This document shows positions 7,288 through 63,471 of a stretch of DNA of 64,000 nt, piece after piece. The notes under the pieces are model-generated. The model worked only from the letters and a program-made list of their open reading frames with translations. It was not told the DNA's origin and made no database searches. Position numbers and translations under genes: made by a program. The stretch lies in assembly GCA_905233165.1 (NCBI GenBank), contig CAJODL010000001.1, forward strand, positions 563,927 through 627,926, in the 5' to 3' direction. The DNA is from an uncultured Prevotella sp. (GTDB taxonomy: Bacteria; Bacteroidota; Bacteroidia; Bacteroidales; Bacteroidaceae). How positions within the stretch are numbered: position 1 is the first letter of the stretch; each line of letters starts with the position of its first letter.

Positions 7288-7310
7288 TTTATAGTTTAAA
7301 GTTTATAGTT
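7279..7310. repeat. heptad tract (agtttat/agtttaa) spanning the GT4 stop codon
   Basis: 4.5 in-register 7-mers. The same words recur at 57921-57948. Confidence 0.85.
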
Positions 7311-7358
7311 CTGTTTTCGTCATTTAAGATAAGGAAAGAAGAGCGCAAGAGTACCTTA

Positions 7359-10018: not shown

Positions 10019-11467
10019 TTGACGTATAATCTTGGCGCCACTAAGATATATTATGCCAAGATATATGATAGCGGCAAGGAATATCCTTACCAGCATGAGG
10101 CAAAGAGAAGTGTAAAATGTGAAATGTGAAGAGTGAAGAATGAAGAGTGATAGGTGGTGAGTTACAACCATAGTGAATGCTGCAATAAAGAAGAATGGCA
10201 GTATATCTTTCAATGCTTGGTACCAGCTGAAGCCTATTTCGCGATTGACGAAGAAATGCCATACAAAAGTCCATGAAATGACTATAATGACATAAGCTAT
10301 TACCATATCTCTTATGCTTCCGCCAAGATAGTGTACTGTCAGTAGTGAGCCCATGATAACACAACCTTGTATGATGACATTCCACATATAGATGGCACTC
10401 TTTCCACGACTGATTATCATATCATAATATAAGGTGGCAAGAGGCAGAAAGGCGCCTGCGATGCATAATAACTGCATCAGGGTTGCTGAAGGTAGCCACT
10501 TCTCTGTAACTGTTATGATAATAAATTCCCGTGCTATTAATGCTAAACCAAGCATTGCAGGGAATGATATGAAGCATGTAAAGCGTAGCATCTTAGAAAA
10601 TGCCCTGCATAAGCGCTCCTTGTCGTCACCAACCTGCACAAAGGTGGGTTGAGCAACACCATGCACCATTCCTGTTATAGTATTGCTTCCCATAACGTTC
10701 CACTTCTGTGCCTGAGAATAGACACCTGCCTCAGTCTTGTTGTACAGACGACCCAGAAGGAGTGAGAAGATGTTGTTGTTGATGTTGTTGAAGATGTATG
10801 TAAACAGCATCTTGCAGGAGAATCCAAGGAGAGGTTTCAGGGGAGTGAATTGTGAAATGTGAAAGGTGAAAGGTTTTGGACGCCACTTTGAGAAATACCA
10901 GCTGAAGATAGTAATGCAAAAATTAAACACAAGTGTTTGGGTTGCTATACCCCAAAAGGCAAAGCCGTTAGCGGCAAGGGTGATGCCAACAGCTCCTGAA
11001 ATTAGGAGTGAAGATAGTGCCATTAAAGCGAGTTCTCGTTGCTGTAATCGACGAAATAGAATGGCTCGTGGCACAATAGAGAAACTGGCAATGAAGAAAC
11101 CTATGAAGAAATATCTTGACAGGGATGTCAGTATAGGTTCATTATAAAACGCTGCTATCCAAGGGGAAACACTGAACAGGATGACATAGGCAATGATGCT
11201 CACCATGATATTAAACCAAAAGACGGCATTGTAGTCATCGTGGGTGGCGTCGCGTTTATTTGTCAAAGCAATTACGAAACCGCTGTCCTGCAAGGCAGTC
11301 GCAACAGTAGAAAAGACAAGTAGCATAGCAATGAGACCATAGTCATCAGGAGAAAGTAGACGAGCCAGTACAATGCCGAAGATAGCATTGAGTACTTGTG
11401 TGGCACCATTATTGACAGCACCCCATACAAGTCCTTTCGCTGCTTTGTCTTTTAGTGTATCGCTCAT
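9986..11467 (-). CDS. polysaccharide flippase (Wzx/MOP superfamily)
   Basis: 493 aa with about 12-14 TM segments. N-terminal KGLVWGAVNNGATQVLNAIFGIVLARLLSPDDYG is typical of Wzx-like exporters. Confidence 0.8.
   Translation of the reverse strand: MSDTLKDKAAKGLVWGAVNNGATQVLNAIFGIVLARLLSPDDYGLIAMLLVFSTVATALQDSGFVIALTNKRDATHDDYNAVFWFNIMVSIIAYVILFSVSPWIAAFYNEPILTSLSRYFFIGFFIASFSIVPRAILFRRLQQRELALMALSSLLISGAVGITLAANGFAFWGIATQTLVFNFCITIFSWYFSKWRPKPFTFHISQFTPLKPLLGFSCKMLFTYIFNNINNNIFSLLLGRLYNKTEAGVYSQAQKWNVMGSNTITGMVHGVAQPTFVQVGDDKERLCRAFSKMLRFTCFISFPAMLGLALIAREFIIITVTEKWLPSATLMQLLCIAGAFLPLATLYYDMIISRGKSAIYMWNVIIQGCVIMGSLLTVHYLGGSIRDMVIAYVIIVISWTFVWHFFVNREIGFSWYQALKDILPFFFIAAFTMVVTHHLSLFILHSSHFTFYTSLCLMLVRIFLAAIIYLGIIYLSGAKIIRQSWEYIRHKQV
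10110..10158. repeat. heptad tract (NNGTGAA x7) inside the wzx 3' coding region
   Basis: gtgtaaa atgtgaa atgtgaa gagtgaa gaatgaa gagtgat aggtggt. Confidence 0.8.
10844..10873. repeat. heptad tract (agtgaat tgtgaaa tgtgaaa ggtgaaa) inside wzx
   Basis: Four in-register 7-mers in the middle of the CDS. Confidence 0.75.
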
Positions 11468-29467: not shown

Positions 29468-29526
29468 CCTTAACGGTTATCGGTTAAAGACCTTTAAACT
29501 CTAAACTCTAAACTCTAAACTAAAAC
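29468..29526. repeat. heptad-built greA-HIT spacer (cggttat cggttaa ... taaactc x3)
   Basis: Period 7 is continuous from the greA stop to the HIT ATG (29528). Confidence 0.85.
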
Positions 29527-29527
29527 A

Positions 29528-29926
29528 ATGGATATTTTCTCAAAAATTGCTGCTGGTGAGATTCCCAGTTATAAGTGTGCAGAGAATGAAGAATTCTACG
29601 CGTTTCTTGATATTAGTCCTGTAGTAAAGGCTCATGTCCTCGTAATCCCACGTCGAGAGGTTGATTATCTCTTTGATATGGAAGATGATGAGATAGCCCG
29701 TTATTTCGTGTTCGCCAAGAAGGTGGCAAAGGCTATCAAGGAGGCGTTCCCTTGTAAGAAGGTTGGCATGAGTGTCTTTGGCTTGGAAGTAGCACATGCT
29801 CATATCCACCTGATGCCAATGGACACAGAGGGTGATATGGATTTCCGCAGGGAAAAGCTGTCATTGCCAGCAAACGAGATGGAAGAGATAGCAAATAAAA
29901 TTTTTACAGCTTTCCAAAACCTTTGA
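29528..29926 (+). CDS. HIT family protein
   Basis: Histidine triad HAHIHLMP. Confidence 0.9.
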   Translation: MDIFSKIAAGEIPSYKCAENEEFYAFLDISPVVKAHVLVIPRREVDYLFDMEDDEIARYFVFAKKVAKAIKEAFPCKKVGMSVFGLEVAHAHIHLMPMDTEGDMDFRREKLSLPANEMEEIANKIFTAFQNL

Positions 29927-29982
29927 CCTTTGACCTTAGACCTTTGACCTTTGGCCTTAGACCTTAGACCTTTGACCTTTGA
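29920..29982. repeat. heptad tract (cctttga/ccttaga x9) from the HIT stop toward rbfA
   Basis: Nine in-register 7-mers. Confidence 0.9.
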
Positions 29983-29994
29983 CTTTTTATAATT

Positions 29995-34600: not shown

Positions 34601-35243
34601 TTGTGGCGGTATTACGGAGGAATTCCAATACTGCTGGGAGAATATCAAGAAGCCATATCTGCGTTCTATTCATGACCCATACTGTAATACCCAGGATAAG
34701 AAGATACTCTCTGAGGTACTCAGGGATTATGATCAGGAGACGTTAGACTTCCATGACTGGCTCGTCACCTATACACAGGAAGAGTTGGCATCCATACTGC
34801 AGGACAATCTCGGTATCGACTTTGGCCACATCCTCAGTCTTGAGGCTCTGGAGCGTGGTAAGAGTGGTCGTATCTCCTCACTGCGCATTGTGGGTGATAA
34901 GGCAGAGAAGACCATTGGTAAGGAGCTCGCCATCCGCAAGGCCCTGTCACGTTCGTGTCTCTATAGTTCCGCCTTCACTGTTGCGACGACAAATAAGAGT
35001 GACACTCTGTTGGGACAGCTCTCCGCCCTCATTCCACATCCATCATCCATCATCCATAATCCATCATCCAACAGCCATCAGCCAACAACTTGGCCGGCCC
35101 ACTTTATTTTGAATGGCAAAGGCTGGGGTCATGGAGTAGGGTTGTGTCAGATAGGCGCTGCCGTCATGGGCGCCAAGGGAATACCATACGACGATATCCT
35201 GAAGTTCTATTATCAGGGCACCGAAATCGAAAAAGCGTGGTAG
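31608..35243 (+). CDS. tri-domain fusion protein: N-terminal unknown region, GT2 glycosyltransferase, DUF4922/HIT-like nucleotide-sugar phosphorylase-like domain and SpoIID/LytB domain
   Basis: GT2: [10 protein letters not shown]...[10 protein letters not shown] (about 32.27 kb). HIT-like: CFLC..N.PEEQ and [10 protein letters not shown] (33438-33452). SpoIID: [27 protein letters not shown]. Start is TTG 31608 or ATG 31638. Confidence 0.8.
35044..35099. repeat. heptad tract (ccacatc catcatc x2 cataatc catcatc caacagc catcagc caacaac) inside the SpoIID-domain coding region
   Basis: Eight in-register 7-mers. Translated as a non-repetitive [19 protein letters not shown]. Confidence 0.85.
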
Positions 35244-35246
35244 CGT

Positions 35247-35322
35247 TACCGCTTGCCCCAATTTTAAAGCCCCAATTTTAAAGCCCCAAAAATAAACGTA
35301 GGCTGCAAATGTGCAGCCTACG
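35247..35322. repeat. left copy of the 76-bp perfect inverted repeat (two 14-bp tandem units plus a terminator hairpin)
   Basis: taccgcttgccccaattttaaagccccaattttaaagccccaaaaataaacgtaggctgcaaatgtgcagcctacg is the exact reverse complement of 47996-48071. Confidence 0.95.
35297..35322. terminator. bidirectional terminator hairpin inside the left IR
   Basis: 11-bp stem cgtaggctgca/tgcagcctacg with a 4-nt loop. A T-rich run follows on both strands. Confidence 0.65.
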
Positions 35323-35385
35323 AACTTTTATCTTTTAATTTTTGACTCTCCACTCACAACTGACTCTAAACTCTTAACTTTGAAA
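35323..35385. repeat. heptad tract (aactttt atctttt aattttt gactctc cactcac aactgac tctaaac tcttaac tttgaaa)
   Basis: Nine in-register 7-mers between the left IR and the 3' end of the small minus-strand gene. Confidence 0.8.
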
Positions 35386-35657: not shown

Positions 35658-35659
35658 AA

Positions 35660-35729
35660 CTTTAAACTTTCTACTTTAAACTTTTAACTGCCTATAAACT
35701 TTACACTTTAAACTCTACACTCTACACTA
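35660..35729. repeat. heptad tract (ctttaaa ctttcta ... tacactc tacacta)
   Basis: Ten in-register 7-mers downstream of the HU-like gene. Confidence 0.85.
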
Positions 35730-36640: not shown

Positions 36641-36676
36641 GTCGTAAAAGTCGTAAAAGTCGTTTTTGTCGTTTTA
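36641..36676 (+). repeat. array of four 9-bp iteron-like units (GTCGTAAAA x2, GTCGTTTTT, GTCGTTTTA)
   Basis: Read directly. Units 2-4 recur exactly at 46736-46762, and the array recurs in inverted form at 36846-36881. Confidence 0.9.
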
Positions 36677-36845: not shown

Positions 36846-36881
36846 AAAAACGACAAAAACGACAAAAACGACCAAAACGAC
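36846..36881 (-). repeat. array of four 9-bp units in inverted orientation (AAAAACGAC x3, CAAAACGAC)
   Basis: Reverse complement is GTCGTTTTG, then GTCGTTTTT x3. The 17-bp core gtcgtttttgtcgtttt is shared with the left array. Confidence 0.9.
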
Positions 36882-36893
36882 TGTTGATAAAAA

Positions 36894-43472: not shown

Positions 43473-43757
43473 ATGGAAACAAAGATTTTAAAAGTGGTAC
43501 GTCAGGGCGAGGCCTTCAATGTACCGAGTAAGACGACTGAATCGGGAGAGATTCAGAAATGTAACATTGTGTTGAAAGAGCTTGGAAGCTCGAAGTACGA
43601 GAATGAGTATTCATGTGTCATGCTGGGCAACCTGGCCGGATGCAAATTTGCAGAGGGGAGCATCGTGGCAGCTACTCTGAAGTTCTCAACTCACGAAAAC
43701 AACGGTGCGACCTATCAGGACATCCTGGCAACGGACATTGTGACGGTTAAGGGTTAA
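43473..43757 (+). CDS. small OB-fold-like protein (DUF3127-like, from recall)
   Basis: 94 aa. The length and pattern (MExKILKVV....G......VLKE...... F.EG..V...L.F...E.NG..YQDI.A..I) resemble DUF3127. Confidence 0.45.
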   Translation: METKILKVVRQGEAFNVPSKTTESGEIQKCNIVLKELGSSKYENEYSCVMLGNLAGCKFAEGSIVAATLKFSTHENNGATYQDILATDIVTVKG

Positions 43758-43807
43758 AGGTTAACGGTTAAAGGTCTAAAACTTAATTTTCAATTTTCAA
43801 TTAACTT
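43745..43807. repeat. heptad tract (ggttaag ggttaaa ggttaac ggttaaa ggtctaa aacttaa ttttcaa ttttcaa ttaactt)
   Basis: Nine in-register 7-mers that start within the last codons of the 43473 gene. Confidence 0.85.
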
Positions 43808-44243: not shown

Positions 44244-46742
44244 ATGGAAAGAGTATATAGTTATATAGACGGTGTGACGGATACGAAACCCAAGCCGTTG
44301 ACAAGGGAGAAATTCCATGAACTCTGCAAAGCACCACGCACAAGGAAACTTGTGCGTGACTTCCAACAGGGTAACGGGGAGGCAAAGAAAAAACTGCCTG
44401 CTGCCATGTTTCTCGGATTTCAAACACAGGGTGACCGCATACAGGAACATATGGAGCCTACGCAACTTTACCTAATTGATATCGACCATATCAGTAACAA
44501 GAACGAGGACATGACCCCTGAAATGGTATGGGAGAAGATAAGACAGGAGATGGAGGTGGCGCAATATGACTTCATGGTAAGACTTGTTCACAAGACTCCA
44601 AGTGGTGATGGGCTGAGAATTGTGCTACATGCTACGGAGAACTTCGAGACTCTGGAAGAACATGCCGAATGGTTGAGAAAGGAACTCGACCTGGACAGAT
44701 ATGGAAAATTTGACTGCCTGAAAAATCTCGACAGGGTGTCGTTCATAATTCCTGAAGAATACATCCTCCTTGAAAGTCCATGTCTGTGGGATGAGACAGA
44801 AGAAGGTGGACCGATAAAGAAGAAAACGAAGGATGAAGGACGAAAGACGAAGGACGATAACCATAACGTTAACGAAAACAACTCTCAACTGTCAACTTTC
44901 AACTCTAAACTGAACGATGACGGGGAACCTATCTTGTGGGAGGGGTATGACATTCAGAAGATTATCGATGACCGATACAGAAGGGGGGTGCCTGGGGCAG
45001 GAAACATATCGAGGCATGATCAGAGCTTGAAACTGGCACGTGACCTTCTTATTATGTTCGACCGCGATAAGAGCCTTGTTCTCAGAATATTGCTTAGGCA
45101 GAGCTGGATAAAGGACATAATTAAGGAACGCAACGAACCTGTTGAAAAAACGATTGAAGCGGCTCTGACTTATGCTAACGGCAAGGATGGTGGAAAGTAT
45201 GCCCTGACATACAGGTATCTGACGCCTGCAACGCAAAACTCTATACTGCATGTAACGGGAAATACATGGAAAGAATGGATAGCAGAACTTGATGCGAAGT
45301 TTGAAGAAACTCTGGAAGAAAGAAACGATAACGAAAACGAAAACCAGGACGAAAACTATGACGAAGACGATGACGAAGAAGATGCTGTTGCGACTATGCC
45401 GCCTGCACCACCTGTGATAAGGGAACTGATATCTATTGCTCCAAAGGATTTCGTGATACCTGCCATCAATGCTCTGATGCCAATACTGGGTACGTTGACA
45501 TCATACGTAAGGGCTGAGGACAAGCAGGATGCGAAAACGATATCTACAACATTCTTCTCCATAATCTATGCTCCGCCATCATCGGGTAAAAGCTTCGTTG
45601 ATAGGTATATCAACTACCTCATGCGTGACCTCTACAGACGAGACGAACTGAATGATGCAAGGGATGAAGTTTATGCAAGGGCTGACCAACAGAAAGGTCA
45701 GAACGTGCATGGAGAGCCACTGCCACTGACTACGATACGCATAATGGAGGCAAAGAGCTCTGAAACAGAGTTTCTGCAGAAACAGAGAAACAACAAGGGG
45801 CATCATATGTTTACGTACTGTTCGGAGATAGACCAGTGGCGCAAAGGTGTAAAGGCTGCAGGTGGTAATAAGGACGACATGATACGCATAGCATGGGACA
45901 ATGGACGATATGGACAGAAATACAAATCAACCATGTCCTTTAAGGGTAAGGTGTTCCTGTACTGGAATGTGCTCATAGCAGGTACCGACGATCAGTTACG
46001 GGCGTATTTTAAGAATGTGACGAACGGACTGGTGACGAGATGCTGCTTTCAGGAGATAAAGAACCAGGAATTTCAGGAAGTCCCCCCAGAATGGAAGACC
46101 TTGAACAAGAAGGAACGGAAGGTTATAGACAATTTTATAGAAAAGTGTGACCGGATGACCTATACAGAGCCTCTTACCTACGACGTGGAGCAATGCTATA
46201 GCGTGGCCGACAAAGACTTTGACGCAGAGGTGCCATGGCGGATGGACTTCAAACCCCTGATAACTGTTAATATCGATTGGATAATGCCCACAATAGCACG
46301 GTTCAACAGAGAGCATTGCAGAAAGGCGATGATGGACAATGATAGAGCTCATGACACTTTTCGCAGACGAGTAGGAACAAGAGCTAAGAGACTGGCATTG
46401 TTATGTACCCAGTTGTATGAAAAATCCATGACACAGGCTGACAAAAAAGCTTGCGCAAAGTGGATAGCATGGTGGATGGAACAGGATATAAAAGGTATAA
46501 TGAGACCATTCGCAAACAAATACAGAAAAGCTATAGAAGAAGATACTCCTGACAATACTCCACGAAAGACTCTGTTTGAACGACTGCCTGAAGAATTTTC
46601 GAAAGAAGACGTAAGAAGAATGGCTGATATCTTGGGATATAAGACGAGTGTTAGAGAAATTACTTTCAGGTGGAAGAAAATAAATATTATAGAGAAAATG
46701 ACAAATGATACTTGGAGGAAAATTACAGAGAAAAAGTCGTAA
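44244..46742 (+). CDS. primase-helicase: VirE_N/BT4734-like N-terminal primase domain plus DUF3987-type P-loop helicase domain
   Basis: N-terminal KKLPAAMFLG.....R....PTQLYLIDIDH pattern. Low-complexity linker. Walker A PPSSGKSF (GKS at 45585-45593). Confidence 0.75.
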   Translation: MERVYSYIDGVTDTKPKPLTREKFHELCKAPRTRKLVRDFQQGNGEAKKKLPAAMFLGFQTQGDRIQEHMEPTQLYLIDIDHISNKNEDMTPEMVWEKIRQEMEVAQYDFMVRLVHKTPSGDGLRIVLHATENFETLEEHAEWLRKELDLDRYGKFDCLKNLDRVSFIIPEEYILLESPCLWDETEEGGPIKKKTKDEGRKTKDDNHNVNENNSQLSTFNSKLNDDGEPILWEGYDIQKIIDDRYRRGVPGAGNISRHDQSLKLARDLLIMFDRDKSLVLRILLRQSWIKDIIKERNEPVEKTIEAALTYANGKDGGKYALTYRYLTPATQNSILHVTGNTWKEWIAELDAKFEETLEERNDNENENQDENYDEDDDEEDAVATMPPAPPVIRELISIAPKDFVIPAINALMPILGTLTSYVRAEDKQDAKTISTTFFSIIYAPPSSGKSFVDRYINYLMRDLYRRDELNDARDEVYARADQQKGQNVHGEPLPLTTIRIMEAKSSETEFLQKQRNNKGHHMFTYCSEIDQWRKGVKAAGGNKDDMIRIAWDNGRYGQKYKSTMSFKGKVFLYWNVLIAGTDDQLRAYFKNVTNGLVTRCCFQEIKNQEFQEVPPEWKTLNKKERKVIDNFIEKCDRMTYTEPLTYDVEQCYSVADKDFDAEVPWRMDFKPLITVNIDWIMPTIARFNREHCRKAMMDNDRAHDTFRRRVGTRAKRLALLCTQLYEKSMTQADKKACAKWIAWWMEQDIKGIMRPFANKYRKAIEEDTPDNTPRKTLFERLPEEFSKEDVRRMADILGYKTSVREITFRWKKINIIEKMTNDTWRKITEKKS
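44826..44916. repeat. 13-heptad tract inside the primase-helicase CDS (acgaagg-type words switching to ctNtcaa-type words)
   Basis: acgaagg atgaagg acgaaag acgaagg acgataa ccataac gttaacg aaaacaa ctctcaa ctgtcaa ctttcaa ctctaaa ctgaacg. Confidence 0.85.
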
Positions 46743-46762
46743 AAGTCGTTTTTGTCGTTTTA
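46736..46762 (+). repeat. third copy of the 9-mer array (GTCGTAAAA, GTCGTTTTT, GTCGTTTTA)
   Basis: 27 bp identical to 36650-36676. Overlaps the primase-helicase stop codon (46740-46742). Confidence 0.9.
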
Positions 46763-46796: not shown

Positions 46797-47288
46797 ATGG
46801 GAATACAAAAGAGCAGATATGCAAGTTATAAAGAAACGCCAGCCTATCGTAACAGGAATCCGTTGAACATACGATGGTCGGCAAAGAATAAGTGGCAGGG
46901 CCAGACAGGATGTGACACAAGAGGTTTTGCCAAGTTTGAGAGCCTGAGCTACGGCTATCGTGCAGCAGTGAAGATACTGCATCGGTACAAGACAAACGGA
47001 TGGAAGACCATAGCGGAGGTGATACGCCATTGGGCACCATCTACAGAGAATTCCACCGAGAGTTATATAAAAACCGTGTGTAACCTGATGGCACAACGGC
47101 AGAGTGAGTTGGGAACAATAACCCCACAGACACAGGTGGACTTGAGAAACAGAAATCTTGTGATAAACCTTCTCTTAATGATGACCAAGGTGGAGACGGG
47201 ATGGAGTACAACGGCAGTATTGTCAATGAGGGAGTATATCGGGATGGGTTACGACCTCGCCGCAACAAGTCCGGAGTTTTTTAAATAA
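46797..47288 (+). CDS. phage-associated conserved hypothetical protein (163 aa)
   Basis: NPLNIRWS..NKWQG....GFAKFESLSYGYRAAVKIL..Y...GWKTIAEVIRHWAPSTENSTESYIKTV. The pattern is recalled from phage proteins, but function is not established. Confidence 0.5.
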   Translation: MGIQKSRYASYKETPAYRNRNPLNIRWSAKNKWQGQTGCDTRGFAKFESLSYGYRAAVKILHRYKTNGWKTIAEVIRHWAPSTENSTESYIKTVCNLMAQRQSELGTITPQTQVDLRNRNLVINLLLMMTKVETGWSTTAVLSMREYIGMGYDLAATSPEFFK

Positions 47289-47364: not shown

Positions 47365-47484
47365 ATGAACGATAAGAAAAATATTTGGCAGGTGTTGGCG
47401 AAGGTGATAGTAGCCGCACTGACAGCAGCGCTCACAGCTGTTACAACAACGTCATGTATGGGATTTGGACCTATGTTAAGTTGA
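47365..47484 (+). CDS. 39-aa small membrane/lipoprotein-like peptide ('smalltalk'-like, from recall); below the ORF-track cutoff
   Basis: ATG 47365 encodes MNDKKNIWQVLAKVIVAALTAALTAVTTTSCMGFGPMLS, then a stop. Confidence 0.5.
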   Translation: MNDKKNIWQVLAKVIVAALTAALTAVTTTSCMGFGPMLS

Positions 47485-47530
47485 GAGTTTAGAGTTTAGA
47501 GTTGAGAGTCAGTTTAAAAGTTTATAGTTT
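47479..47530. repeat. heptad tract (gagttta/gagttga/gtttata) filling the spacer before the DUF5675 gene
   Basis: About 7 in-register 7-mers. Confidence 0.8.
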
Positions 47531-47992
47531 ATGGAACTAATTTTAAAAAGAATAGCAAAACGTAAAGGTTATACAATAGGAATACTCTACCTCTCCCCCT
47601 TGGGGGAGTCGGAGAGGGGTTATCTTTGCGACACTCTTGAGCCGCCGTGTATTGAGATGAAGGTGGACAGGACAGTTGAGGAGGTGCTGAATGATAAGAG
47701 TCTCCTGAAGTCTATCAAGCCGTGTGCGATACCGGAAGGGGAATACAGGGTCAGTATGACATACAGCCCAAGGTATAAAACGCAGCTGCCGTTGATAACG
47801 GGTGACAGCCGCTTTAACAGCCTCTGGCAAGGCATCCGCATCCACGCCGGCAACACCGCAAAGGATACACAAGGTTGCATCCTGGTAGGAGAAAACCAAA
47901 TCGTAGGAATGGTGATAAATTCGCGTATCACCTTGAAGACCCTCCTGACTTTCCTTAAAGGGAGGGATGTAAAGTTGAGAGTGAAAAGTTAA
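47531..47992 (+). CDS. DUF5675-family protein
   Basis: GYLCDTLEP...IPEGEY.V.....SPRY...LPLI......GIRIHAGNTAKDTQGCILVGEN matches the recalled DUF5675 pattern. Confidence 0.65.
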   Translation: MELILKRIAKRKGYTIGILYLSPLGESERGYLCDTLEPPCIEMKVDRTVEEVLNDKSLLKSIKPCAIPEGEYRVSMTYSPRYKTQLPLITGDSRFNSLWQGIRIHAGNTAKDTQGCILVGENQIVGMVINSRITLKTLLTFLKGRDVKLRVKS

Positions 47993-47995: not shown

Positions 47996-48033
47996 CGTAG
48001 GCTGCACATTTGCAGCCTACGTTTATTTTTGGG
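47996..48033 (+). terminator. rho-independent terminator after the DUF5675 gene (inside the right IR)
   Basis: 11-bp stem, 4-nt loop, then tttattttt. Confidence 0.7.
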
Positions 48034-48071
48034 GCTTTAAAATTGGGGCTTTAAAATTGGGGCAAGCGGTA
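47996..48071. repeat. right copy of the 76-bp perfect inverted repeat
   Basis: Exact reverse complement of 35247-35322. Confidence 0.95.
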
Positions 48072-48134
48072 GCTTTGCGAAAATAGCTTATATATAAAAT
48101 AAAAAAGGTCAGCATATTTTGCTGGCCTTTTATG

Positions 48135-48205
48135 TTGTCCTAGGCGGATTCGAACCACCACAAACAGAACCAAAACCTGTTGTGCTACCATTACACCATA
48201 GGACA
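48135..48205 (-). tRNA. tRNA-Gln (anticodon UUG)
   Basis: Folded by hand: acceptor TGTCCTA/TAGGACA, D arm GTGT/GCAC, anticodon stem ACAGG/TCTGT with loop TTTTGGT, T arm GGTGG-TTCGAAT-CCGCC. 71 nt; CCA is not encoded. Confidence 0.9.
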
Positions 48206-51666: not shown

Positions 51667-52029
51667 ATGACAGAACAGATACAGAAACTAACAGAAACAG
51701 CCGTAAAGGCCATAAAGGATAAGAAGGGTAAAGGCATCAGAGTCATCGACATGCAGGGCATGGATGGTGTCATCTGTCAGGCCTTCGTAATATGTCAGGG
51801 TGGTTCGCCTACCCAGATATCAGCCATTGCCGACAATGTAGAAGAGGTGATGCGCAAGGAACAGGGTGAGAAGCCCCTCAAAATCGCTGGTATGGAGAAT
51901 TGCTACTGGGTAGCAATGGATTATGTTGACATCATCGTACATATCTTCCTTCCAGAGGCACACGACTTCTATGACATCGAGTCACTATGGCAAGATGCGA
52001 AAGTAACGGAAATCCCAGACGAAGAGTAA
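51667..52029 (+). CDS. rsfS: ribosome silencing factor RsfS
   Basis: 120 aa. The pattern ..KKG..I.VIDM......C..FVIC.G.S..Q..AIADNV and WVAMDY.DIIVHIF is typical of RsfS/Iojap. Confidence 0.9.
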   Translation: MTEQIQKLTETAVKAIKDKKGKGIRVIDMQGMDGVICQAFVICQGGSPTQISAIADNVEEVMRKEQGEKPLKIAGMENCYWVAMDYVDIIVHIFLPEAHDFYDIESLWQDAKVTEIPDEE

Positions 52030-52030
52030 A

Positions 52031-52107
52031 GGTCAAAGGTCAAAGGTCAAAGGCTGATTTTCTTAACTCTTAATTCTTAATTCTTAACTCTTAACTCTTA
52101 ACTACAA
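52031..52107. repeat. heptad-built rsfS-ftsH spacer (ggtcaaa x3, ggctgat, tttctta, then actctta/attctta x6, actacaa)
   Basis: Eleven in-register 7-mers occupy essentially the whole spacer (stop at 52027-52029, ATG at 52111). Confidence 0.9.
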
Positions 52108-52110: not shown

Positions 52111-54126
52111 ATGCCTTCAAATGCTTCAATGAGTGGTAACAGACCACCTCGGATGCCAAAATTCAACATGAGTTGGATTTATCTTGTTATCATCATAACA
52201 CTTGGCGTCATATTTTTCACAGATGGAGATCAGTCGATAGGCCAGAGTGCCGTTCGTCGTGCATCATATTCTAACTTCAAGGCATACGTCGATCGTGGCT
52301 ATGCCAAGAGTGTTGTTGTCAACAAACAGGAATCAAAACTCCGCATGTATGTTCGTGCTGAAAATGTCAGGGACTTGTTCCATCAAGGCAAGGACCAGAC
52401 AGGCGATGCCCCATATGTGGAGGTGTTCTATGGTAGCGTTGACCAGGTAGAGGCTTTCCTTGAGGCAGAGCGTACCAAGGGTAAGTTCAAAGGAGAACTG
52501 GTGTATGAAGACCCTTCGCGCAATGGTATTCTCGACTTCCTTATCAGCCTTGCTCCATGGATTTTGTTTATCTTCATCTGGTTCTTCCTAATGAATCGCT
52601 TCAGCGGTGGCGGAGGCGGCGGCATCGGAGGCATCTTCTCCGTAGGACGCTCTAAGGCACAGATGATAGAGAAGGGTAATACCCTTGGTATCACTTTCAA
52701 GGATGTAGCCGGTCAGGCAGGAGCAAAGCAGGAGGTGCAGGAGATTGTGGACTTCCTCAAGCAACCACAGAAATATACCGAACTGGGTGGTAAGATACCA
52801 AAGGGCGCCCTCTTGGTAGGCCCTCCAGGAACTGGTAAGACATTGCTGGCAAAGGCCGTGGCAGGAGAGGCTGGCGTACCATTCCTCTCGATGTCGGGCT
52901 CTGACTTTGTGGAGATGTTCGTAGGTGTTGGCGCTTCTCGTGTTCGTGATACATTTGCTCAGGCAAAGGCAAAGGCACCAAGTATCATCTTTATCGATGA
53001 AATCGATGCTATTGGTCGTGCTCGAAGCAAGAATCCAGGCTATGGCGGCAATGATGAACGTGAGAATACCCTGAATGCCTTGCTGACAGAGATGGATGGC
53101 TTTGGCACTAACTCTGGTGTCATCATTATGGCAGCAACAAACCGTGTCGATATGCTCGATAAGGCATTGCTGCGTGCAGGACGTTTCGATCGTGAGATAC
53201 ATGTGGACCTCCCAGACCTTACAGAGAGAAAGGAGATTTTTCAGGTGCATCTGCGTCCTATAAAGGCTGACGAAAACCTCGATATAGACCTTCTGGCTCG
53301 TCAGACACCAGGCTTCTCTGGCGCTGATATTGCTAATGTATGTAATGAGGCAGCCCTGATAGCGGCCCGTCATAACTCAAAACTCGTTACCAAACAGGAT
53401 TTCCTCGATGCTGTCGATCGTATCATTGGTGGTTTGGAGAAGAAGACCAAGGTGATGACGAATGACGAAAAGCGTGCCGTTGCCCTTCATGAGGCAGGAC
53501 ATGCTACCTGTTCATGGTTCTGTCAGCATGCCAATCCTTTGGTGAAGGTGAGCATCGTACCTCGTGGAAGAGCACTTGGCGCTGCATGGTATCTGCCAGA
53601 AGAGCGTCAGCTGACTACAAAGGAACAGTTGCTTGACGAGATGTGCTCACTGCTTGGTGGACGTGCTGCAGAAGAACTATTTACAGGTCATATCTCAACA
53701 GGTGCTATGAACGACCTTGAGCGTTCTACGAAGATGGCACAAAGCATGATTGCTATCTATGGTATGAGTGACACCCTGCCAAATATCTGTTATTATGACA
53801 ATAATGACTATAACTTCACAAAGCCATATTCAGAAGAAACAGCGAAGGTTATTGATTCCGAGGTGCTGAAGATGGTCAATGAGCAGTATGCCCGCGCTAA
53901 GGCTCTGTTAAAGGAACATAGTGAGGGACATAATGAGTTGGCAGAACTCCTGATACAGCGTGAGGTGATATTTGCAGAAGATGTAGAACGCATCTTTGGT
54001 AAACGCCCATGGGCTTCTCGTGCAGAGGAGATAATAAACGAAAACGATAACGCTAACGATAACGCTAACGATAACGCTAACGATAACGCTAACGATAACG
54101 CTAACGCTAACGATATCAATAAATAG
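52111..54126 (+). CDS. ftsH: ATP-dependent zinc metalloprotease FtsH, with a repeat-encoded C-terminal (N-D/A)n tail
   Basis: [30 protein letters not shown] region and HEAGHA zinc site. The tail is [29 protein letters not shown]. Confidence 0.95.
54037..54114. repeat. 13 x AACGNN hexamer tract encoding the FtsH C-terminal tail
   Basis: aacgaa aacgat, then (aacgct aacgat) x4, then aacgct aacgct aacgat. In frame. Confidence 0.9.
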
Positions 54127-54158
54127 AAACTAAAAACTAGAAACTTGAAACTAAGATA
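54124..54158. repeat. heptad tract (tagaaac taaaaac tagaaac ttgaaac taagata) between ftsH and cdsA
   Basis: Five in-register 7-mers. Confidence 0.8.
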
Positions 54159-54161: not shown

Positions 54162-55031
54162 ATGTCTAATTTCATAACTAGAACCATAACAGGAGTACTC
54201 TTCGTACTCGTTATCTTGACCTGCTTCCTTCGTCCTACGTCGATGGCATTTCTCTTTGCCCTCGTCACAGGACTATCAGTATGGGAGTTTACAGGTCTGG
54301 TAAATCAACGTGAAGATGTAAATGTCAACCGTTTTATATGCACAGCGGCAGGAGTATTCCTGTTCATCGCTATGGTTGGCTTTTGCAGTGGTATGACACC
54401 ATCATCGGTGTTCATCCCTTATCTGCTGACAGTGATATATCTGTTCTGCAGCGGATTGTTCACACGCAATCCTGACCCTATACACGATTGGGCTTATGCC
54501 ATGATGTCGCAGATGTATATCGCCCTGCCATTCTCATGCCTTGCCATCCTCGCCTTCAGGGGATATGCAGACTCTGGATTGGTGATGTATAACATGCTGC
54601 TACCTGTCAGCGTCTTTATCTTCCTTTGGATGAATGATACTGGTGCCTATTGCACTGGCTCACTTTTGGGCCGTCATAAACTCTTTCCTCGTGTCAGCCC
54701 AGGCAAATCGTGGGAAGGCTCTGTAGGTGGTGCTGTAATAGTGCTTTTAGTGGCTTACTTGATATCATATATCGATGAAAATGACCTTCTCTCATCCTTG
54801 GGCGCTATGCCAACAGGACTAAGCACCATAGAGTGGTTGGGACTCGGACTTACCGTTGTTGTCTTCGGAACCCTTGGTGACTTGGTAGAGTCACTGTTCA
54901 AGCGCACCCTTGGCATCAAGGATAGCGGCAATATCCTCCCAGGACACGGTGGAATGCTCGATCGCTTCGACTCATCCCTAATGGCAATACCAGCAGCAGT
55001 GGTGTATATATATACCTTGACGGTGGTCTAA
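54162..55031 (+). CDS. cdsA: phosphatidate cytidylyltransferase
   Basis: C-terminal SLFKRTLGIKDSGNILPGHGGMLDRFDS signature. Confidence 0.9.
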   Translation: MSNFITRTITGVLFVLVILTCFLRPTSMAFLFALVTGLSVWEFTGLVNQREDVNVNRFICTAAGVFLFIAMVGFCSGMTPSSVFIPYLLTVIYLFCSGLFTRNPDPIHDWAYAMMSQMYIALPFSCLAILAFRGYADSGLVMYNMLLPVSVFIFLWMNDTGAYCTGSLLGRHKLFPRVSPGKSWEGSVGGAVIVLLVAYLISYIDENDLLSSLGAMPTGLSTIEWLGLGLTVVVFGTLGDLVESLFKRTLGIKDSGNILPGHGGMLDRFDSSLMAIPAAVVYIYTLTVV

Positions 55032-55199
55032 GGTCAAAGGTCTAAGGTCAAAAGTCAAAGGAAGAAAGGTGATGGTTTAATACCAACTCTACAAACAAAC
55101 CTTCACCCATAAACCTTCACCCATAAACCTTCATCCTTCATCCATAAACCTTCACCAAAATAACAATGTTCAATTTTCAATGTTCAATTTTCAATATAC
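55025..55199. repeat. 25 consecutive in-register heptads filling the cdsA-GH127 spacer
   Basis: Counted base by base: ggtctaa ggtcaaa ggtctaa ggtcaaa agtcaaa ggaagaa aggtgat ggtttaa taccaac tctacaa acaaacc ttcaccc ataaacc ttcaccc ataaacc ttcatcc ttcatcc ataaacc ttcacca aaataac aatgttc aattttc aatgttc aattttc aatatac. Confidence 0.95.
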
Positions 55200-55203: not shown

Positions 55204-57264
55204 ATGAAAAAGTTTCTATTTACTCTAAGTCTTATTTTTATGTCTGCTGTGCCATCAGTAGCGCAGTATCCTATCAACCCAGTACCCTTTACGTCTGTAA
55301 AGGTTAGTGATGCTTTTTGGTCTCCACGTCTGAAGGCGTCTCGTGATGTTACTGTTCCTCTGGCTTTCGATAAGTGTGAGGAGACAGGTCGTTACACCAA
55401 TTTCACCAATGCCGCAAGGTGTATGGCAAATCCGGCACAGGAATATCCTGATACCTCTTGGACCTTCACTTTCGACGATACAGACCCTTACAAGACCATC
55501 GAGGGTGCCAGCTATTTGCTGCAGACCTATCCGAAGGCCCTCTATCATGGCCGTCCTCTCGATAAGTATGTTGACAGCGTCATTGCTGTTATAGCAAGTG
55601 GTCAGGAGCCAGACGGCTACCTCTATACTCCTCGTACCAAGGCACCTCATAAGCCTCATTCTTGGGCTGGTGATAAGCGTTGGGAAAAGGTAGAGATAGT
55701 TTCTCATGAGCTGTATAACCTTGGCCACCTTCTTGAGGCAGCCTGTGCACACTATCAGGCAACAGGAAAGCGTAGCCTACTCGATATCGGCATCAAATAT
55801 GCTGATTGCGTTTGTCGTGAGGTGGGTCCTAATGAGGGACAGGCTCATGTGGTGCCAGGTCATCAGATAGCAGAGATGGGACTCTGTAAGTTGTATGTCC
55901 TCACCAAAGACAAGAAATACCTCGACGAAGCAAAATACTTCCTCGATATGCGTGGTAAGACACAGCGTCGCGATGCATACTCACAGGCCCACAAACCAGT
56001 TGTAGAGCAGGATGAGGCTGTAGGACATGCTGTTCGTGCAGAATATATGTATAGTGGTATGGCGGATGTGGCTGCCCTGACAGGTGATACGGCATATATC
56101 AGCGCTATAGACCGCATCTGGCAGAATATCGTAGAGAAGAAATATTATATCACTGGTGGAGTAGGGGCACGCCATGACGGTGAGTCATTCGGTGCAAACT
56201 ATGAACTCCCTAATGCCTCTGCTTATTGCGAGACATGCGCGCAGATAGGTAATGTCTATACCAACTATCGTCTGTTCCTGCTTCATGGTGAGTCAAAATA
56301 CTATGATGTCCTCGAACGCTCTCTGTATAATGGTGTTCTCTCAGGTGTTTCTATTCAGGGCGATGGATTCTTCTATCCAAATCCTCTCTCTTGTACAGCA
56401 GAGCAGCAGTATGCCCGCAAACCTTGGTTTGGCTGTGCCTGCTGTCCAAGTAACATCTGTCGCTTCATACCGTCTGTACCAGGCTATGTATATGCTGTGA
56501 AGGATAATTCTGTTTATGTAAACCTCTTTATGGGAAATACCGCAACTCTGAATGTCGGTGGAAAGAAAATCACCCTCAAGCAGGAGACTCTCTATCCAAA
56601 TAATGGCGATATAAAAATGACCATCGTAAAGGGTGGTGGCGAATTCACCATGAAGATACGCATCCCTGGATGGGTTCGTGGCGATGTAGTACCAAGCGAC
56701 CTGTATACTTATGTTGATGGCAAGAAACTGGGATATTCCATAAATGTTAATGGTACCCAGCTTACGGGCGAAGGAATGAAACTCCTTAACCTCGATAACG
56801 GCTATGCTACAATAACGGCAAAGTGGAAGAAGGGTGATGTGATAGACATCCATTTTGATATGGAGCCACGTCTGGTGAAGGCAAATGATAAGGTAGCGGC
56901 AGACCGTAACCGCCTCGCAGTAGAACGTGGACCACTCGTTTATTGTGCTGAATGGCCAGACAACAGTGCTGATGTATCAACATATCTTCTCAATGCCCGC
57001 CCACAGCTGGCAATGGGAGAGAATATTAAGATAACCCCTGACCATGAGGTGAAGAGTATCACAACAGAGGCACAGGTGCTCTCTATCGGTACTGATGGCA
57101 AGCTGAAGACTGCAGACAGCAAACTCACCCTTATCCCATACTATGCGTGGGACCATCGTGGTCAGAAGGGCGGCATGGATGTATGGCTCCCAGCAGGAGT
57201 GCAGGCAGCATCCGCAACACATGTAACAGCAGAAAAACAAAAAGATAACGGATTCTTTAAATGA
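55204..57264 (+). CDS. glycoside hydrolase family 127 (beta-L-arabinofuranosidase-like, DUF1680)
   Basis: Signal peptide from ATG 55204. CETCAQ and FGCACCPSN Cys motifs are typical of GH127. Confidence 0.8.
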
Positions 57265-57920
57265 TTAATGTAGAAGGCATTACAAAGAGCTTTGGCTCTA
57301 TACAAGTACTGAAGGGTATCGACCTCCATATCTCCAAAGGAGAAGTCGTCAGCATCGTAGGGCCCTCTGGAGCAGGTAAGACAACCTTGCTGCAGATTAT
57401 GGGAACCCTCGACAAAGCTGATAGCGGCAGCGTCGTCATCAATGGCGTCGATACCACATCTCTCTCAAAAAACAAACTGGCAGACTTCCGTAATCAAAAT
57501 ATCGGCTTTGTCTTCCAGTTCCATCAGCTGCTACCAGAGTTTACGGCAGAGGAGAATATCCTCCTGCCATCCCTCATAGCAGGTGCCAAGCGTAGCGAAG
57601 CAACAGCACGTTGTGCAGAGCTGCTGAAATTCCTCGGAATGAGTGACAGGGCAACCCACAAGCCGACACAGCTGTCGGGTGGTGAGAAACAACGCATCGC
57701 TGTAGCCAGAGCCCTCATCAATAACCCTGCCGTAGTATTTGCCGACGAACCATCTGGTTCCCTCGATACTACCAACAAGGCAGAACTGCATCAGCTCTTC
57801 TTCGACCTCCGCAATCAGTACGGCCAGACCTTCGTCATCGTAACCCATGATGAGGGACTCTCAAAAATCACAGACCGCACCATACATCTCAGGGATGGTT
57901 TGATAGAACAGACCTTATAA
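57261..57920 (+). CDS. ABC transporter ATP-binding protein (LolD-like)
   Basis: Walker [10 protein letters not shown], signature LSGGEKQR and Walker B VVFADEP. The start overlaps the GH127 stop (ATGA). Confidence 0.85.
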
Positions 57921-57983
57921 AGTTTATAGTTTAAAGTTTATAGTTTATAGGCAGTGGTAAGTGTATAGTTGAGAGTTGAAAAG
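57921..57983. repeat. heptad tract (agtttat agtttaa agtttat agtttat aggcagt ggtaagt gtatagt tgagagt tgaaaag) after the lolD-like gene
   Basis: Nine in-register 7-mers starting right after the stop codon. Confidence 0.85.
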
Positions 57984-58064
57984 ATGGTTTTTCTTGGTTT
58001 TTGTAAAAATAAAAAATAATTCGTGTAAATTCGTATAATTAGTGGTCTAAAATAATATAAAAAA

Positions 58065-59935: not shown

Positions 59936-59980
59936 CCTTTCATCCTTCATCCATCATCCATCATCCTTCATCCATCATCC
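59936..59980. repeat. heptad tract (cctttca tccttca tccatca x2 tccttca tccatca) ending at the acetyltransferase ATG
   Basis: 6.5 in-register 7-mers. The ATG is at 59981. Confidence 0.9.
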
Positions 59981-60538
59981 ATGTTCGAAGTAATCGACGC
60001 CACTGGTTCTGGCAATAAGAAAGACCCTCGCATGCGTGCCATAGAGGGAGAGATGATACGCAGTCATGCCCTATGCCTGCAAATATCATCCAAGAAGCCT
60101 ACAGACCCCGACTATAAAGGCCTTCTGGAAGAACTCTTTCAATGCCAGGTGGATGATAGTACTGTTATTGTTTCTCCATTCTATTGCGATTGTGGCTGTA
60201 GGATGAAGATTGGGAAGAATGTTACCATCAACAAGGGTGCCACTATTATCTCTCCTGGGAAGGTGGAGATAGAAGATAATGTTCTTATAGCCCCAGAGGT
60301 GAAGATAGCCACTGTAAATCATGACCCTTATGACAGGCACAACCTCATGCATTTTGGAAAGGTTACTATTAAGGAAAATGCCTGGATAGGTATGGGAGCC
60401 ATTATCTGTCCTGGAGTAACGATAGGCCGTAATGCTATTGTCGGAGCAGGCGCCGTTGTTACAAAAGACGTACCAGACAATGTCGTCGTCGGAGGCAATC
60501 CTGCTCGCATAATACGCCATTTAACCACTAATCCATAA
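59981..60538 (+). CDS. sugar O-acetyltransferase (hexapeptide-repeat, maltose/galactoside acetyltransferase-like)
   Basis: Left-handed beta-helix repeats: IGKNVTINKGATII..., ENAWIGMGAIICPGVTIGRNAIVGAGAVVTKDVPDNVVVGGNPA. Confidence 0.85.
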   Translation: MFEVIDATGSGNKKDPRMRAIEGEMIRSHALCLQISSKKPTDPDYKGLLEELFQCQVDDSTVIVSPFYCDCGCRMKIGKNVTINKGATIISPGKVEIEDNVLIAPEVKIATVNHDPYDRHNLMHFGKVTIKENAWIGMGAIICPGVTIGRNAIVGAGAVVTKDVPDNVVVGGNPARIIRHLTTNP

Positions 60539-61394: not shown

Positions 61395-61450
61395 CTTTCA
61401 CTCAACGCTAACCAATAAACTCTAACCTCTAACCGTTAACCATTCATCAC
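61395..61450. repeat. heptad tract (taaccaa taaactc taacctc taaccgt taaccat ...) at the GH43 3' end
   Basis: Eight in-register 7-mers. Confidence 0.8.
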
Positions 61451-62699: not shown

Positions 62700-63293
62700 A
62701 TGAAACAGAAGAATTATCTTATTTCTGTACTCACAGCCATATTGCTGATGGTACCCACAATGGTTCAGGCACAATCAAAGGGCAATGCAAAGACCCTCGA
62801 AGTATCGTTCGACTACCAGAAGCAACCAGGTCCTGGTTCTAACCAGTATGCTGTATGGATAGAAAATGAGAAAGGTGACGTTGTAAAAACACTTTTCGTC
62901 ACATCCTATACCACAAAGGGACGAGTACGTGGAAATGAACAACCTATGCGCGGCTATGTCAAGCGCCCTAACTGCGTGCCTACATGGGTAAAAGCCTCAA
63001 AAGCCAGTGAGAAGACCGACCAAGAACTTGATGCCGTAACAGGAGCAACACCACAGGCAGGAGGAAAGCAGACATTTTCTTGGGACTTTACCGACCAGCA
63101 AGGTAAGAAGGTAAAAGATGGTAAATACTGCGTAAAAGTAGAAGCAACACTATATCAGGCAAGCACCATCCTCTATACAGGTAACTTCTCAACAAAAGAC
63201 AAGGCTGGCAACATCCCCCTCACATCAACACTCACAGAACCAGCCGAAAACCATAAAGACATGATTACAGCAGTACAAGCAGTACTGAAGTAA
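62700..63293 (+). CDS. DUF2271-like secreted protein
   Basis: Signal peptide from ATG 62700. YAVWIENEKGDVVKTLFV...DAVTGATPQAG...WDFTDQQGKKVKDGKY pattern recalled from DUF2271. Confidence 0.6.
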   Translation: MKQKNYLISVLTAILLMVPTMVQAQSKGNAKTLEVSFDYQKQPGPGSNQYAVWIENEKGDVVKTLFVTSYTTKGRVRGNEQPMRGYVKRPNCVPTWVKASKASEKTDQELDAVTGATPQAGGKQTFSWDFTDQQGKKVKDGKYCVKVEATLYQASTILYTGNFSTKDKAGNIPLTSTLTEPAENHKDMITAVQAVLK

Positions 63294-63296
63294 AAG

Positions 63297-63357
63297 GCTT
63301 AGTAGCTTAATAGCTTACGGCTTACAGCTTACGGCTTAAGAGTTCAAAGTTCAATGG
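63297..63357. repeat. 7/8-bp-period tract (gcttagta gcttaata gcttacg gcttaca gcttacg gcttaag agttcaa agttcaa)
   Basis: Read directly; lies after the DUF2271 gene stop. Confidence 0.8.
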
Positions 63358-63380
63358 CGTGGGATGTTTTTCATCCTGCG

Positions 63381-63471
63381 CCATTACTCTACACTCTACA
63401 CTCTACACTTTTAAAACTTACCCTTCACCATTAACCATTCACCATTCACCTCTCACCTCTAACCACCAACG
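63381..63471. repeat. 13-heptad tract (tctacac x3 ... attcacc x2 tctcacc tctaacc) at and into the esterase 3' end
   Basis: In-register 7-mers. The last about 26 bp lie inside the CDS. Confidence 0.85.

Follow-up and report, generated by a model that had tools for sequence, protein, structure and literature searches.

The 64,000-nucleotide (nt) stretch of uncultured Prevotella DNA analysed here (the window; contig CAJODL010000001.1) carries a dense population of tandem arrays made of 7-nt units (heptads). Most of the arrays lie between genes, and some short spacers are filled with them from end to end. The spacer between cdsA and the gene of a glycoside hydrolase family 127 (GH127) enzyme at 55025-55199, which holds three such arrays, is the focal spacer of this study. 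Comparison of related strains showed that the arrays change in length mostly by whole units and that one of them grew in place. The arrays belong to a known, mechanistically unexplained repeat class, and we consider it probable that they are heptanucleotide microsatellites undergoing slippage-type turnover of whole units in weakly constrained, transcribed spacers.

Heptad periodicity of the window

Genes were placed with a greedy map of open reading frames (ORFs), by which the DNA between genes amounts to ~5.3 kb, or some 8% of the window. The identity between intergenic bases 7 nt apart was 0.3645, compared with ~0.285 at neighbouring lags, and echoes were present at lags 14, 21 and 28. The corresponding value in coding DNA was 0.2567 against about 0.25. 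There were 240 exact recurrences of 6-mers at lag 7, as compared with 18-30 for each of the lags 8, 10 and 11. Tandem Repeats Finder (TRF) detected 34 non-redundant period-7 arrays, together with period-14 and period-21 super-periods, while any other period gave 0-10 arrays. TRF was used in place of a strict lag-7 tract finder, which under-calls arrays because alternating words break the lag-7 runs. With the strict finder, seven tracts were observed in the intergenic segments and none in 200 shuffles, which places the lag-7 signal of the window above that of shuffled intergenic sequence. Hence the observation is real and statistically strong.

About 25 of the 34 merged period-7 arrays were intergenic, and many started at or overlapped the upstream stop codon and ended a few nt before the next ATG. 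An earlier reading of the window from the sequence only (the sequence-only reading) had held that the construction seen in the focal spacer recurs throughout the window, and the TRF and lag-7 results bear this out. At least 15 of the 17 tract positions that it named were in or next to TRF arrays of period 7, 14 or 21; position 35323 was not, and 63297 adjoins an array on a TRF row with an 8-nt period. Its claim that distant loci have words in common was correct for agtttat, for ggtcaaa and its complement, and for tctacac, all of which are exactly shared. The fourth word that it listed, ctctaaa, has exact copies at 29495 and 47479 alone, and the arrays at 36891 and 44879, which it had cited, are near matches.

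Length change and turnover between strains

Strain contigs of this species were independent metagenome assemblies found through exact copies of window proteins, and ranged from 100% to 92% nucleotide identity to the window; their sample names suggest ruminant and other gut metagenomes. The counts given below are hand tallies on metagenome contigs, which may be consensus or chimeric sequences. Allele lengths were measured between anchors a few nt inside the flanking genes, and slightly exceed the true stop-to-start spacers.

Among strains with at least 99.8% identity, ~45 array comparisons revealed a single change, in which contig L003 lacked exactly 35 nt (5 units) of the second array of the focal spacer. 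At 97-99% identity, ~27 of 28 arrays differed. The differences in array length were +7/−7, −7, −7/−14, −42 and −35 nt, mostly multiples of 7, and spacers without heptads differed between strains by 0 or −1 nt. The greA-to-HIT spacer was found as alleles of 63, 70 and 77 nt, and the spacer between a 403-amino-acid (aa) gene and a hexapeptide transferase gene as alleles of 58, 51 and 44 nt. The HIT-to-rbfA spacer had an allele of 82 nt versus others of 40 (−42), 44 and 37 nt, and the rsfS-to-ftsH spacer of L001 was 7 nt shorter, with one aaaggtc unit fewer. In L105, the spacer at 61408 was 13 nt longer and contained extra taaactc/taacctc units, and the region 63312-63465 had three extra gttcaag-type units and one actctac fewer.

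The spacer after the ABC ATPase gene (57918) was represented by three allele classes among the strains. The tgaaacc/tgaaact word following this gene rose from 2 copies in the L001-type allele to 8 copies in L111, and the series shows array birth and growth in place. The same spacer of L111 carried a deletion between two gtcaaaggt direct repeats. At least five alleles of the focal spacer were found. Its first array contained at least 9 units in L105 and fewer units in L107, and its second array was shorter in both. L001 and L007 carried an unrelated 90-nt spacer with ggttaac/ggttaaa words, although the flanking genes were 98.5-99.3% identical. The ftsH-to-cdsA array (54124) was absent in L001. 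The comparison of tract lengths between related strains proposed by the sequence-only reading thus revealed expansion and contraction by whole units (±7, −14, −35 and −42 nt, and 2 to 8 copies), in agreement with its suggestion of slippage-type generation.

Since several short-read contigs ended inside arrays (L004, L005, L008, L092, L093, L098, L100 and L101), we considered whether the arrays could be assembly or sequencing artefacts. The arrays were base-for-base identical in independent assemblies from different samples and assemblers, and variant alleles were common to independent samples (e.g., L001 and L007; L117, L120 and L121), which makes the chance of an artefact practically negligible. 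L098 was set aside as an allele of the focal spacer, because the sequence upstream of GH127 in this contig was unrelated to cdsA, for which a different join, or a mis-join, is the probable cause.

A tandem repeat of another period also varied between the strains. At the 3' end of ftsH (54037-54115), an in-frame 6/12-nt repeat, (AACGATAACGCT)n, encodes the C-terminal tail of FtsH. In L002, L097 and L102 the 12-nt repeat was short by 24 nt, and the L001 copy was longer and had a different arrangement. The length of FtsH was 671, 663 or 681 aa depending on the strain, with 681 aa in L001; the shifts came from the in-frame 12-nt repeat and, in L001, also from the loss of the downstream heptad array. 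Slippage would therefore act on any tandem repeat, and what is special here is the abundance of 7-nt arrays. In one strain of the L002/L097/L102 set (contig k119_126929), the alignment to the window began at 52062, inside the rsfS-ftsH heptad spacer, and upstream of this point a 437-aa gene and a sigma-70 gene replaced rsfS and the Na+/H+ antiporter gene. Judged by the alignment, this break is a candidate rearrangement breakpoint within a heptad array.

Structure of the focal spacer

The focal spacer is bounded by cdsA (phosphatidate cytidylyltransferase; 54162-55031, plus strand; Pfam PF01148 CTP_transf_1, E=3e-56), whose TAA stop is at 55029-55031, and by the GH127 beta-L-arabinofuranosidase gene (55204-57264, plus strand; Pfam PF07944, E=6e-115). 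The region 55025-55199 runs from the last codon and stop of cdsA, which together make up the first heptad (ggtcTAA), to 4 nt short of the GH127 ATG at 55204. Three arrays were recognised by TRF on the plus strand. Array 1 (55025-55059; also seen in the heptad table) consists of 5 units of ggtctaa/ggtcaaa with a period of 7/14. Array 2 (55095-55157) has 9 units of ttcaccc/ataaacc/ttcatcc with a period of 7/14/21, and array 3 (55165-55199), ending 4 nt before the GH127 ATG, has 5 units of aatgttc/aattttc and is G-poor. Arrays 1 and 2 are separated by a 35-nt linker (55060-55094), and arrays 2 and 3 by the 7-nt non-repeat linker aaataac (55158-55164); the lag-7 identity of both linkers was at chance. 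The heptad ggtttaa at 55074, within the longer linker, matches ggtctaa at 6 of 7 positions and lies exactly 49 nt in phase with array 1, which suggests that part of this linker may be decayed array 1.

The sequence-only reading had described the focal spacer as 25 consecutive heptads whose register is never broken. This description did not survive, since the spacer is made of three arrays and 42 nt of non-periodic linker. Of the 25 heptads, 19 have another heptad in phase with which they agree at 6 or more of 7 positions, and heptads 6, 7, 9, 10, 20 and 25 matched the next heptad at chance (0-3 of 7 positions). The chosen phase is barely better than the other six lattice phases, which scored 16-18. 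The 4-mer TTCA is common to arrays 2 and 3, with copies 4 nt out of phase. The in-phase ggtttaa of the longer linker speaks for a common register. The register between arrays of different words is therefore arbitrary, as the start of a word is a free choice, and a continuous lattice of the kind that would imply templated synthesis is not supported. The results neither establish a dedicated mechanism nor speak decisively against one.

The predicted fold of the focal spacer has a nested look, and was not significant relative to dinucleotide shuffles (z = −1.5), for which reason a structured RNA was rejected. The sole inverted repeat in the spacer is a 12-nt arm pair, formed by GGTGATGGTTTA (55068-55079, in the longer linker) and the array 2 unit TAAACCTTCACC, which are 92% complementary.

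Array 3 holds ATG triplets at 55166 and 55180, the latter in frame with the GH127 start at 55204. The GH127 product was called as 686 aa or 674 aa depending on the gene caller of the assembly (686 aa from the ATG at 55204 in L001). Because of the in-frame ATG and the disagreement between callers, the true start of GH127 is uncertain.

Genomic context of the arrays

TAnnTTTG is the −7 promoter motif of the Bacteroides type. Upstream of genes, it was found at 28915, 42319/42342, 43391, 50081/50122, 51635 and 60773 and at minus-strand equivalents, in every case in spacers without heptads, and those of these spacers with strain coverage were length-invariant or differed by 1 nt. No TAnnTTTG was found in the heptad-filled spacers of the window. 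No plus-strand terminator-like site was found in the spacers from rsfS to the hexapeptide transferase gene, the four sites found there all lying within coding sequence. On this evidence, the heptad spacers appear to be intercistronic segments of two putative operons, greA-HIT-rbfA-ftsX-... and rsfS-ftsH-cdsA-GH127-ABC-S1-403aa-hexapep, and would be transcribed as parts of polycistronic mRNA. Other heptad arrays flank terminator hairpins between convergent genes, e.g., at 63285-63460. A sigma-70 promoter scan was uninformative (26 sites versus 23 expected), this promoter type being wrong for Bacteroidota, and an Rfam scan of the whole window at gathering thresholds returned only tRNA-Gln.

The arrays close to start codons were distinct in composition. 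In the 35 nt upstream of starts, G made up 8.6% of the sense strand for heptad arrays and 14.9% for other genes, as compared with 22.6% in the whole window. Short (46-81 nt) heptad-filled co-directional spacers were nearly unstructured, with minimum free energies of ~0 to −4 kcal/mol. Bacteroidetes translation initiation is reported to be tuned by mRNA structure in the account given in PMC6847099. The arrays sit in putative operons of housekeeping genes, and since the phylum, Bacteroidota, starts translation without Shine-Dalgarno pairing, an effect of array sequence or length on downstream translation is testable.

Origin of the arrays

The reading that we favour, slippage-type turnover of heptanucleotide microsatellites, can be set out as follows. 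An array would be seeded by a 7-mer that arose by chance or by duplication, and the stop codon of the upstream gene would often be part of this 7-mer. The array would then grow, shrink and decay in whole-unit steps via slipped-strand mispairing or unequal exchange. Arrays would persist only where sequence-specific constraint is low, namely in intercistronic operon spacers and in the surroundings of terminators between convergent genes, and spacers bearing promoters would stay free of them. They would fill short spacers from stop to start because there is little other content there. Selection, on this account, may act on arrays as a filter and not as their source: at distances of up to ~35 nt from a start codon, arrays would be kept A/T/C-rich and very G-poor on the mRNA strand, and direct repeats of words that are not self-complementary would be unable to fold.

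Several results weigh against this account. Simple slippage leaves the 7-nt preference unexplained, which is 9-fold over units of 8, 10 and 11 nt and is seen in this lineage only. Some spacer alleles are wholesale replacements whose length differences are not multiples of 7 (−82 and −61 nt). An exact word was common to 22 pairs of arrays, far above chance as estimated from 2000 null trials (mean 4.9, maximum 15). The gene map is built from ORFs, and the placement of arrays within operons relies on a −7 motif described for Bacteroides promoters. In two heptad spacers, 7288-7358 and 57921-58064, the sense strand contains more G than C, and the focal spacer is somewhat more structured than mononucleotide shuffles (z = −3.2), though not significantly so relative to dinucleotide shuffles. 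In addition, the L001 allele of the cdsA-GH127 spacer is ~91% identical over 57 nt to the unlinked region 43745-43802, including a non-repeat junction, and 35687-35714 matches the reverse complement of 57928-57955, with the junction actgcctataaact present at 35687 and, inverted, at 57942. Independent growth in place does not predict shared junctions, and these matches suggest that some ectopic copying or conversion between arrays may have occurred.

The shared junctions would be accounted for if pre-formed cassettes were copied between spacers, either by ectopic gene conversion seeded by shared words or by an unknown templated-synthesis or mobile mechanism, and this explanation would also accommodate the excess of shared words and the unrelated spacers between nearly identical genes. 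However, just two junction-level cases were found, most changes were simple differences of whole 7-nt units, and neither terminal inverted repeats nor target-site duplications were detected, nor was an associated enzyme. L108, a relative with 92% identity, also has the 3' part of the L001 focal allele, which for this reason may be ancestral at the cdsA-GH127 locus. That such a dedicated or semi-dedicated copying process, and not local slippage alone, created the shared vocabulary and the replaced spacers is quite improbable. The arrays could instead be functional cis-elements, i.e., tandem mRNA or DNA sites for a lineage-specific protein, with the copy number tuning downstream translation or mRNA stability, and a similar proposal has been made for Beggiatoaceae (PMC4679880). 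The non-random vocabulary with words common to several arrays, the many arrays that end a few nt upstream of start codons, and the conservation of array positions across strains while copy number varies are all in line with such a role. On the other hand, the 64 kb contain at least 15 word families, a single word can run with or against the direction of transcription (ggtcaaa at 52028 and 55025; acctttg at 29919), and arrays are also seen behind stop codons and between convergent genes. Beside housekeeping genes, strains ~98.5% identical differed by the loss of whole arrays or by their replacement with unrelated words, and no words were conserved across taxa in 80 Bacteroidota loci, which argues against a universal binding motif. 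We therefore regard a cis-element function as unlikely.

The length polymorphism between strains, and a unit of 7 nt which is not a multiple of 3 and by which an in-frame tract would shift the reading frame, are also what would be expected of phase-variation (contingency) loci, where rapid length change switches neighbouring genes. Contingency simple sequence repeats (SSRs) are characterised by hypermutable length within clonal populations, and they sit in promoters or at the 5' ends of coding sequences, in genes with surface, virulence or restriction-modification functions. The near absence of change among strains at least 99.8% identical does not indicate hypermutability, the neighbours are housekeeping genes (rsfS, ftsH, cdsA, greA and rbfA; also HIT), most arrays are outside coding sequence, and none contains the −7 promoter motif. 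Phase variation is thus very improbable. A further possibility, to which we give a low though not trivial probability, is that this lineage combines a 7-nt-specific mutational process with composite cassettes copied between unlinked intercistronic spacers. The process might reside in a property of the replisome, primase or loop repair, such that 7-nt slipped intermediates are unusually frequent or poorly repaired. If so, a dedicated mechanism and not generic slippage would continuously rewrite operon spacers, and the strain series in rumen metagenomes would be a natural system for asking why heptamers predominate among long bacterial SSRs. Slippage-type turnover of heptanucleotide microsatellites remains the explanation that we favour.

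Relation to known repeats

The over-representation of heptanucleotide repeats in scattered bacterial lineages has been known since 1990-2007, with cause and function unsettled. The sequence-only reading was right that these non-coding tandem 7-bp repeats, with contiguous direct units of 7 nt, are unlike several familiar element types. A clustered regularly interspaced short palindromic repeat (CRISPR) array was ruled out, as the units are contiguous and lack interspersed unique spacers, and CRISPR repeats are 24-48 nt. Repetitive extragenic palindromic (REP) sequences, whose unit is an imperfect palindrome of 20-40 nt, bacterial interspersed mosaic elements, and miniature inverted-repeat transposable elements (MITEs), which have terminal inverted repeats with a target-site duplication, were ruled out as well, since the words are direct repeats, are not self-complementary, and the Rfam scan detected only a tRNA. 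The same reading was mistaken in supposing that no such element class had been described, because heptanucleotide repeats are the subject of earlier reports (PMC4679880, PMC4692102); it had itself named such a description as a finding that would refute it. It had also pointed out that words containing TAA, TAG or TGA place stops in all three frames; this is trivially true of such words, and the ends of several upstream ORFs do fall within the first unit of an array, but many words (ggtcaaa, aatgttc and tcatcca) are stop-free.

According to the summaries given in PMC4679880 and PMC4692102, Mrázek et al. (2007) found heptanucleotide repeats to be the most abundant class of long SSRs (LSSRs) in most of the repeat-rich prokaryotic genomes surveyed, reported their over-representation in bacterial intergenic DNA, and proposed slippage related to the polymerase footprint as the cause. 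The window arrays resemble these LSSRs, as outlined by Mrázek, Guo and Shah (2007) and Huang and Mrázek (2014), in their over-long tandem 7-nt units, intergenic location, sporadic occurrence among lineages and proposed origin by slippage. LSSRs are made of units of 5-11 nt repeated head to tail, and four features of their heptanucleotide class were found here, namely tandem 7-nt units, an abundance above chance, concentration in non-coding DNA and copy changes by whole units. The LSSR work highlighted Burkholderia, cyanobacteria, actinobacteria and Xanthomonas, whereas the present arrays are from Prevotellaceae; unlike those LSSRs, the window has many coexisting words and short operon spacers filled from end to end.

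MacGregor (2015), in a study of Beggiatoaceae, Cyanobacteria and Bacteroidetes, described repeats of TAACTGA as well as Bacteroidetes spacers with mixed "assemblages of heptamer repeats", and suggested that TAACTGA repeats are read by a post-transcriptional regulator of the S1, Csp or CsrA type (PMC4679880). Both systems have intergenic direct repeats of heptamers, often ending just upstream of start codons, as well as multi-array spacers (in Gramella, Aequorivita and Elizabethkingia), close relatives without arrays at the same locus, 7-nt indels and contigs that break in arrays (PMC4679880). Indels in 7-nt increments between strains of the cyanobacterium Cyanothece are also on record (PMC4679880). 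In contrast to MacGregor's system, TAACTGA is absent from the array words of the window, where the nearest is ttaactc at 52061, and no word is dominant. The present analysis adds a graded strain series and evidence for arrays inside putative operons.

Tandem heptanucleotides have been reported in the cyanobacterium Calothrix (PMC4692102). In Xanthomonas and Nostoc, the G-rich GGGAATC/GGGGAYT repeats studied by Rehm et al. (2015) are likewise intergenic and differ extensively in length and sequence between close relatives at the same gene junctions, but form G-quadruplexes (PMC4692102), whereas the window arrays are A/T/C-rich, G-poor near starts and devoid of G-runs. The dispersed non-coding heptamers of heterocystous cyanobacteria, reported for Calothrix PCC 7601 and named short tandemly repeated repetitive (STRR) sequences, share with the window a genome-specific vocabulary that is reused. 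STRR sequences include the words CCCCAGT, TTGGTCA and CAACAGT. These words are absent from the window arrays, the vocabulary of STRR sequences is small and that of the window is larger, and the two belong to different phyla.

No description of heptamer arrays in Prevotella or Prevotellaceae was found in the literature searched. What is added here is the density of the arrays, the multi-word vocabulary, the apparent placement inside operons and the strain series. The known cases are joined by a lineage of gut/rumen Bacteroidota in which heptad density is very high, and public metagenomes hold a graded series of its strains (100% to 92% identity) in which arrays are born, grow, shrink and are replaced. 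In practical terms, the tracts break short-read assemblies and shift predicted gene ends (e.g., that of FtsH), and could serve as high-resolution strain markers.

Distribution across Bacteroidota

The comparison set consisted of 80 other Bacteroidota loci with a total of 1.39 Mb. It contained 3.7 period-7 arrays per 64 kb, and period 7 was no commoner than 8 or 10, so that the excess in the window, which is from a rumen-type Prevotellaceae, is roughly 9-fold (34 versus ~3.7). The pooled lag-7 recurrence of these loci, 7.99 per 10 kb, equalled that of lags 8, 10 and 11, and a general period-7 preference in Bacteroidota was rejected on this ground. The family-level relatives L009-L012 were not enriched, and L043, L045 and L062 were mildly enriched. 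The best match to FtsH among GTDB representative genomes was 75% identical and came from an uncultured Prevotella metagenome-assembled genome, followed by other Prevotellaceae. When the TRF consensus words of the comparison loci were compared with those of the window, only low-complexity A-rich words were in common. Given the unenriched loci, the few mild cases and the lack of conserved words, the phenomenon is, as far as these sequences indicate, lineage-specific and sporadic.

Short tandem arrays of the tgaaacY/aaaccYt type were seen in L029 (Flavobacterium procerum; ~1802, 2176-2203 and 5832), where a fuzzy search detected tgaaacY mini-arrays, and in L045 (8286-8368). Their words resemble those of the 54124 array of the window and of the L001 and L111 spacers after the ABC gene, and the likeness could reflect convergence on A-rich, G-poor leader words.

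Other arrays in the window

The following arrays were called by TRF on the plus strand. Two arrays occupy the rsfS-to-ftsH spacer (52028-52103), aaaggtc x4 followed by ttaactc/ttaattc x6, and the ftsH-to-cdsA spacer has tagaaac/taaaaac x4 (54124-54154). The greA-to-HIT spacer contains taaactc x4 (29495-29521), and the HIT-to-rbfA array of acctttg/accttag x10 (29919-29987), complementary to the ggtcaaa family, includes part of the stop codon of HIT or all of it. The array tcatcct/tcatcca x6 (59940-59982) fills its spacer up to the hexapeptide-transferase ATG and has no G on the sense strand. From the stop codon of the ABC ATPase gene runs agtttat/agtttaa x4.5 (57918-57950), and the same word forms agtttat x4.6 (7279-7310), overlapping the stop of ORF 6067-7287. 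The composite cassette at 43745-43802, also on the plus strand and recognised by sequence comparison, consists of a ggttaaN array followed by a ttttcaa array.

TRF arrays without an assigned strand include the aacttta and actctac arrays of a convergent spacer (35658-35728), and agttgag/agtttag x4.4 (47479-47509) in the spacer after ORF 46797-47288, in which the small genes DUF6486 and DUF5675 (47531-47992, plus strand) were called in strain contigs. In another convergent spacer, ctaacct x4 (61408-61434) adjoins a terminator hairpin. Three arrays, agcttac/ggcttac, actctac x3.4 and accattc (63312-63465), surround a strong terminator-like hairpin in the convergent spacer 63285-63460 (z = −4.5). 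Period-7 arrays were also seen inside long ORFs, at 35033-35087, 44826-44911, 10107-10150, 10845-10874 and 6154-6177, for example near the C-terminus of a 1211-aa glycosyltransferase/SpoIID-domain protein and in an 832-aa hypothetical protein.

A putative strain-variable segment

A perfect 76-nt inverted repeat (35247-35322 and 47996-48071) brackets a 12.7-kb segment of lower GC content, which encodes a 1304-aa ResIII/Eco57I-type protein, DUF6486 and DUF5675, and adjoins tRNA-Gln (48134-48205). The 76-nt repeat contains 2.5 copies of the 14-mer GCCCCAATTTTAAA and a terminator-like hairpin. L112 and L114 were ~100% identical to the window up to 35243, and diverged right after the stop of the 1211-aa gene into DNA absent from the window. 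Because these two contigs diverge at its edge, the segment looks like a strain-variable (mobile or invertible) element. Within this putative mobile segment, arrays of the 9-mer GTCGTAAAA occur in both orientations at 36641-36663, 36846-36881 and 46732-46749, and a 31-nt exact direct repeat, aaaagtcgtaaaagtcgtttttgtcgtttta, is present at ~36646 and ~46732. Both kinds of repeat look iteron-like.

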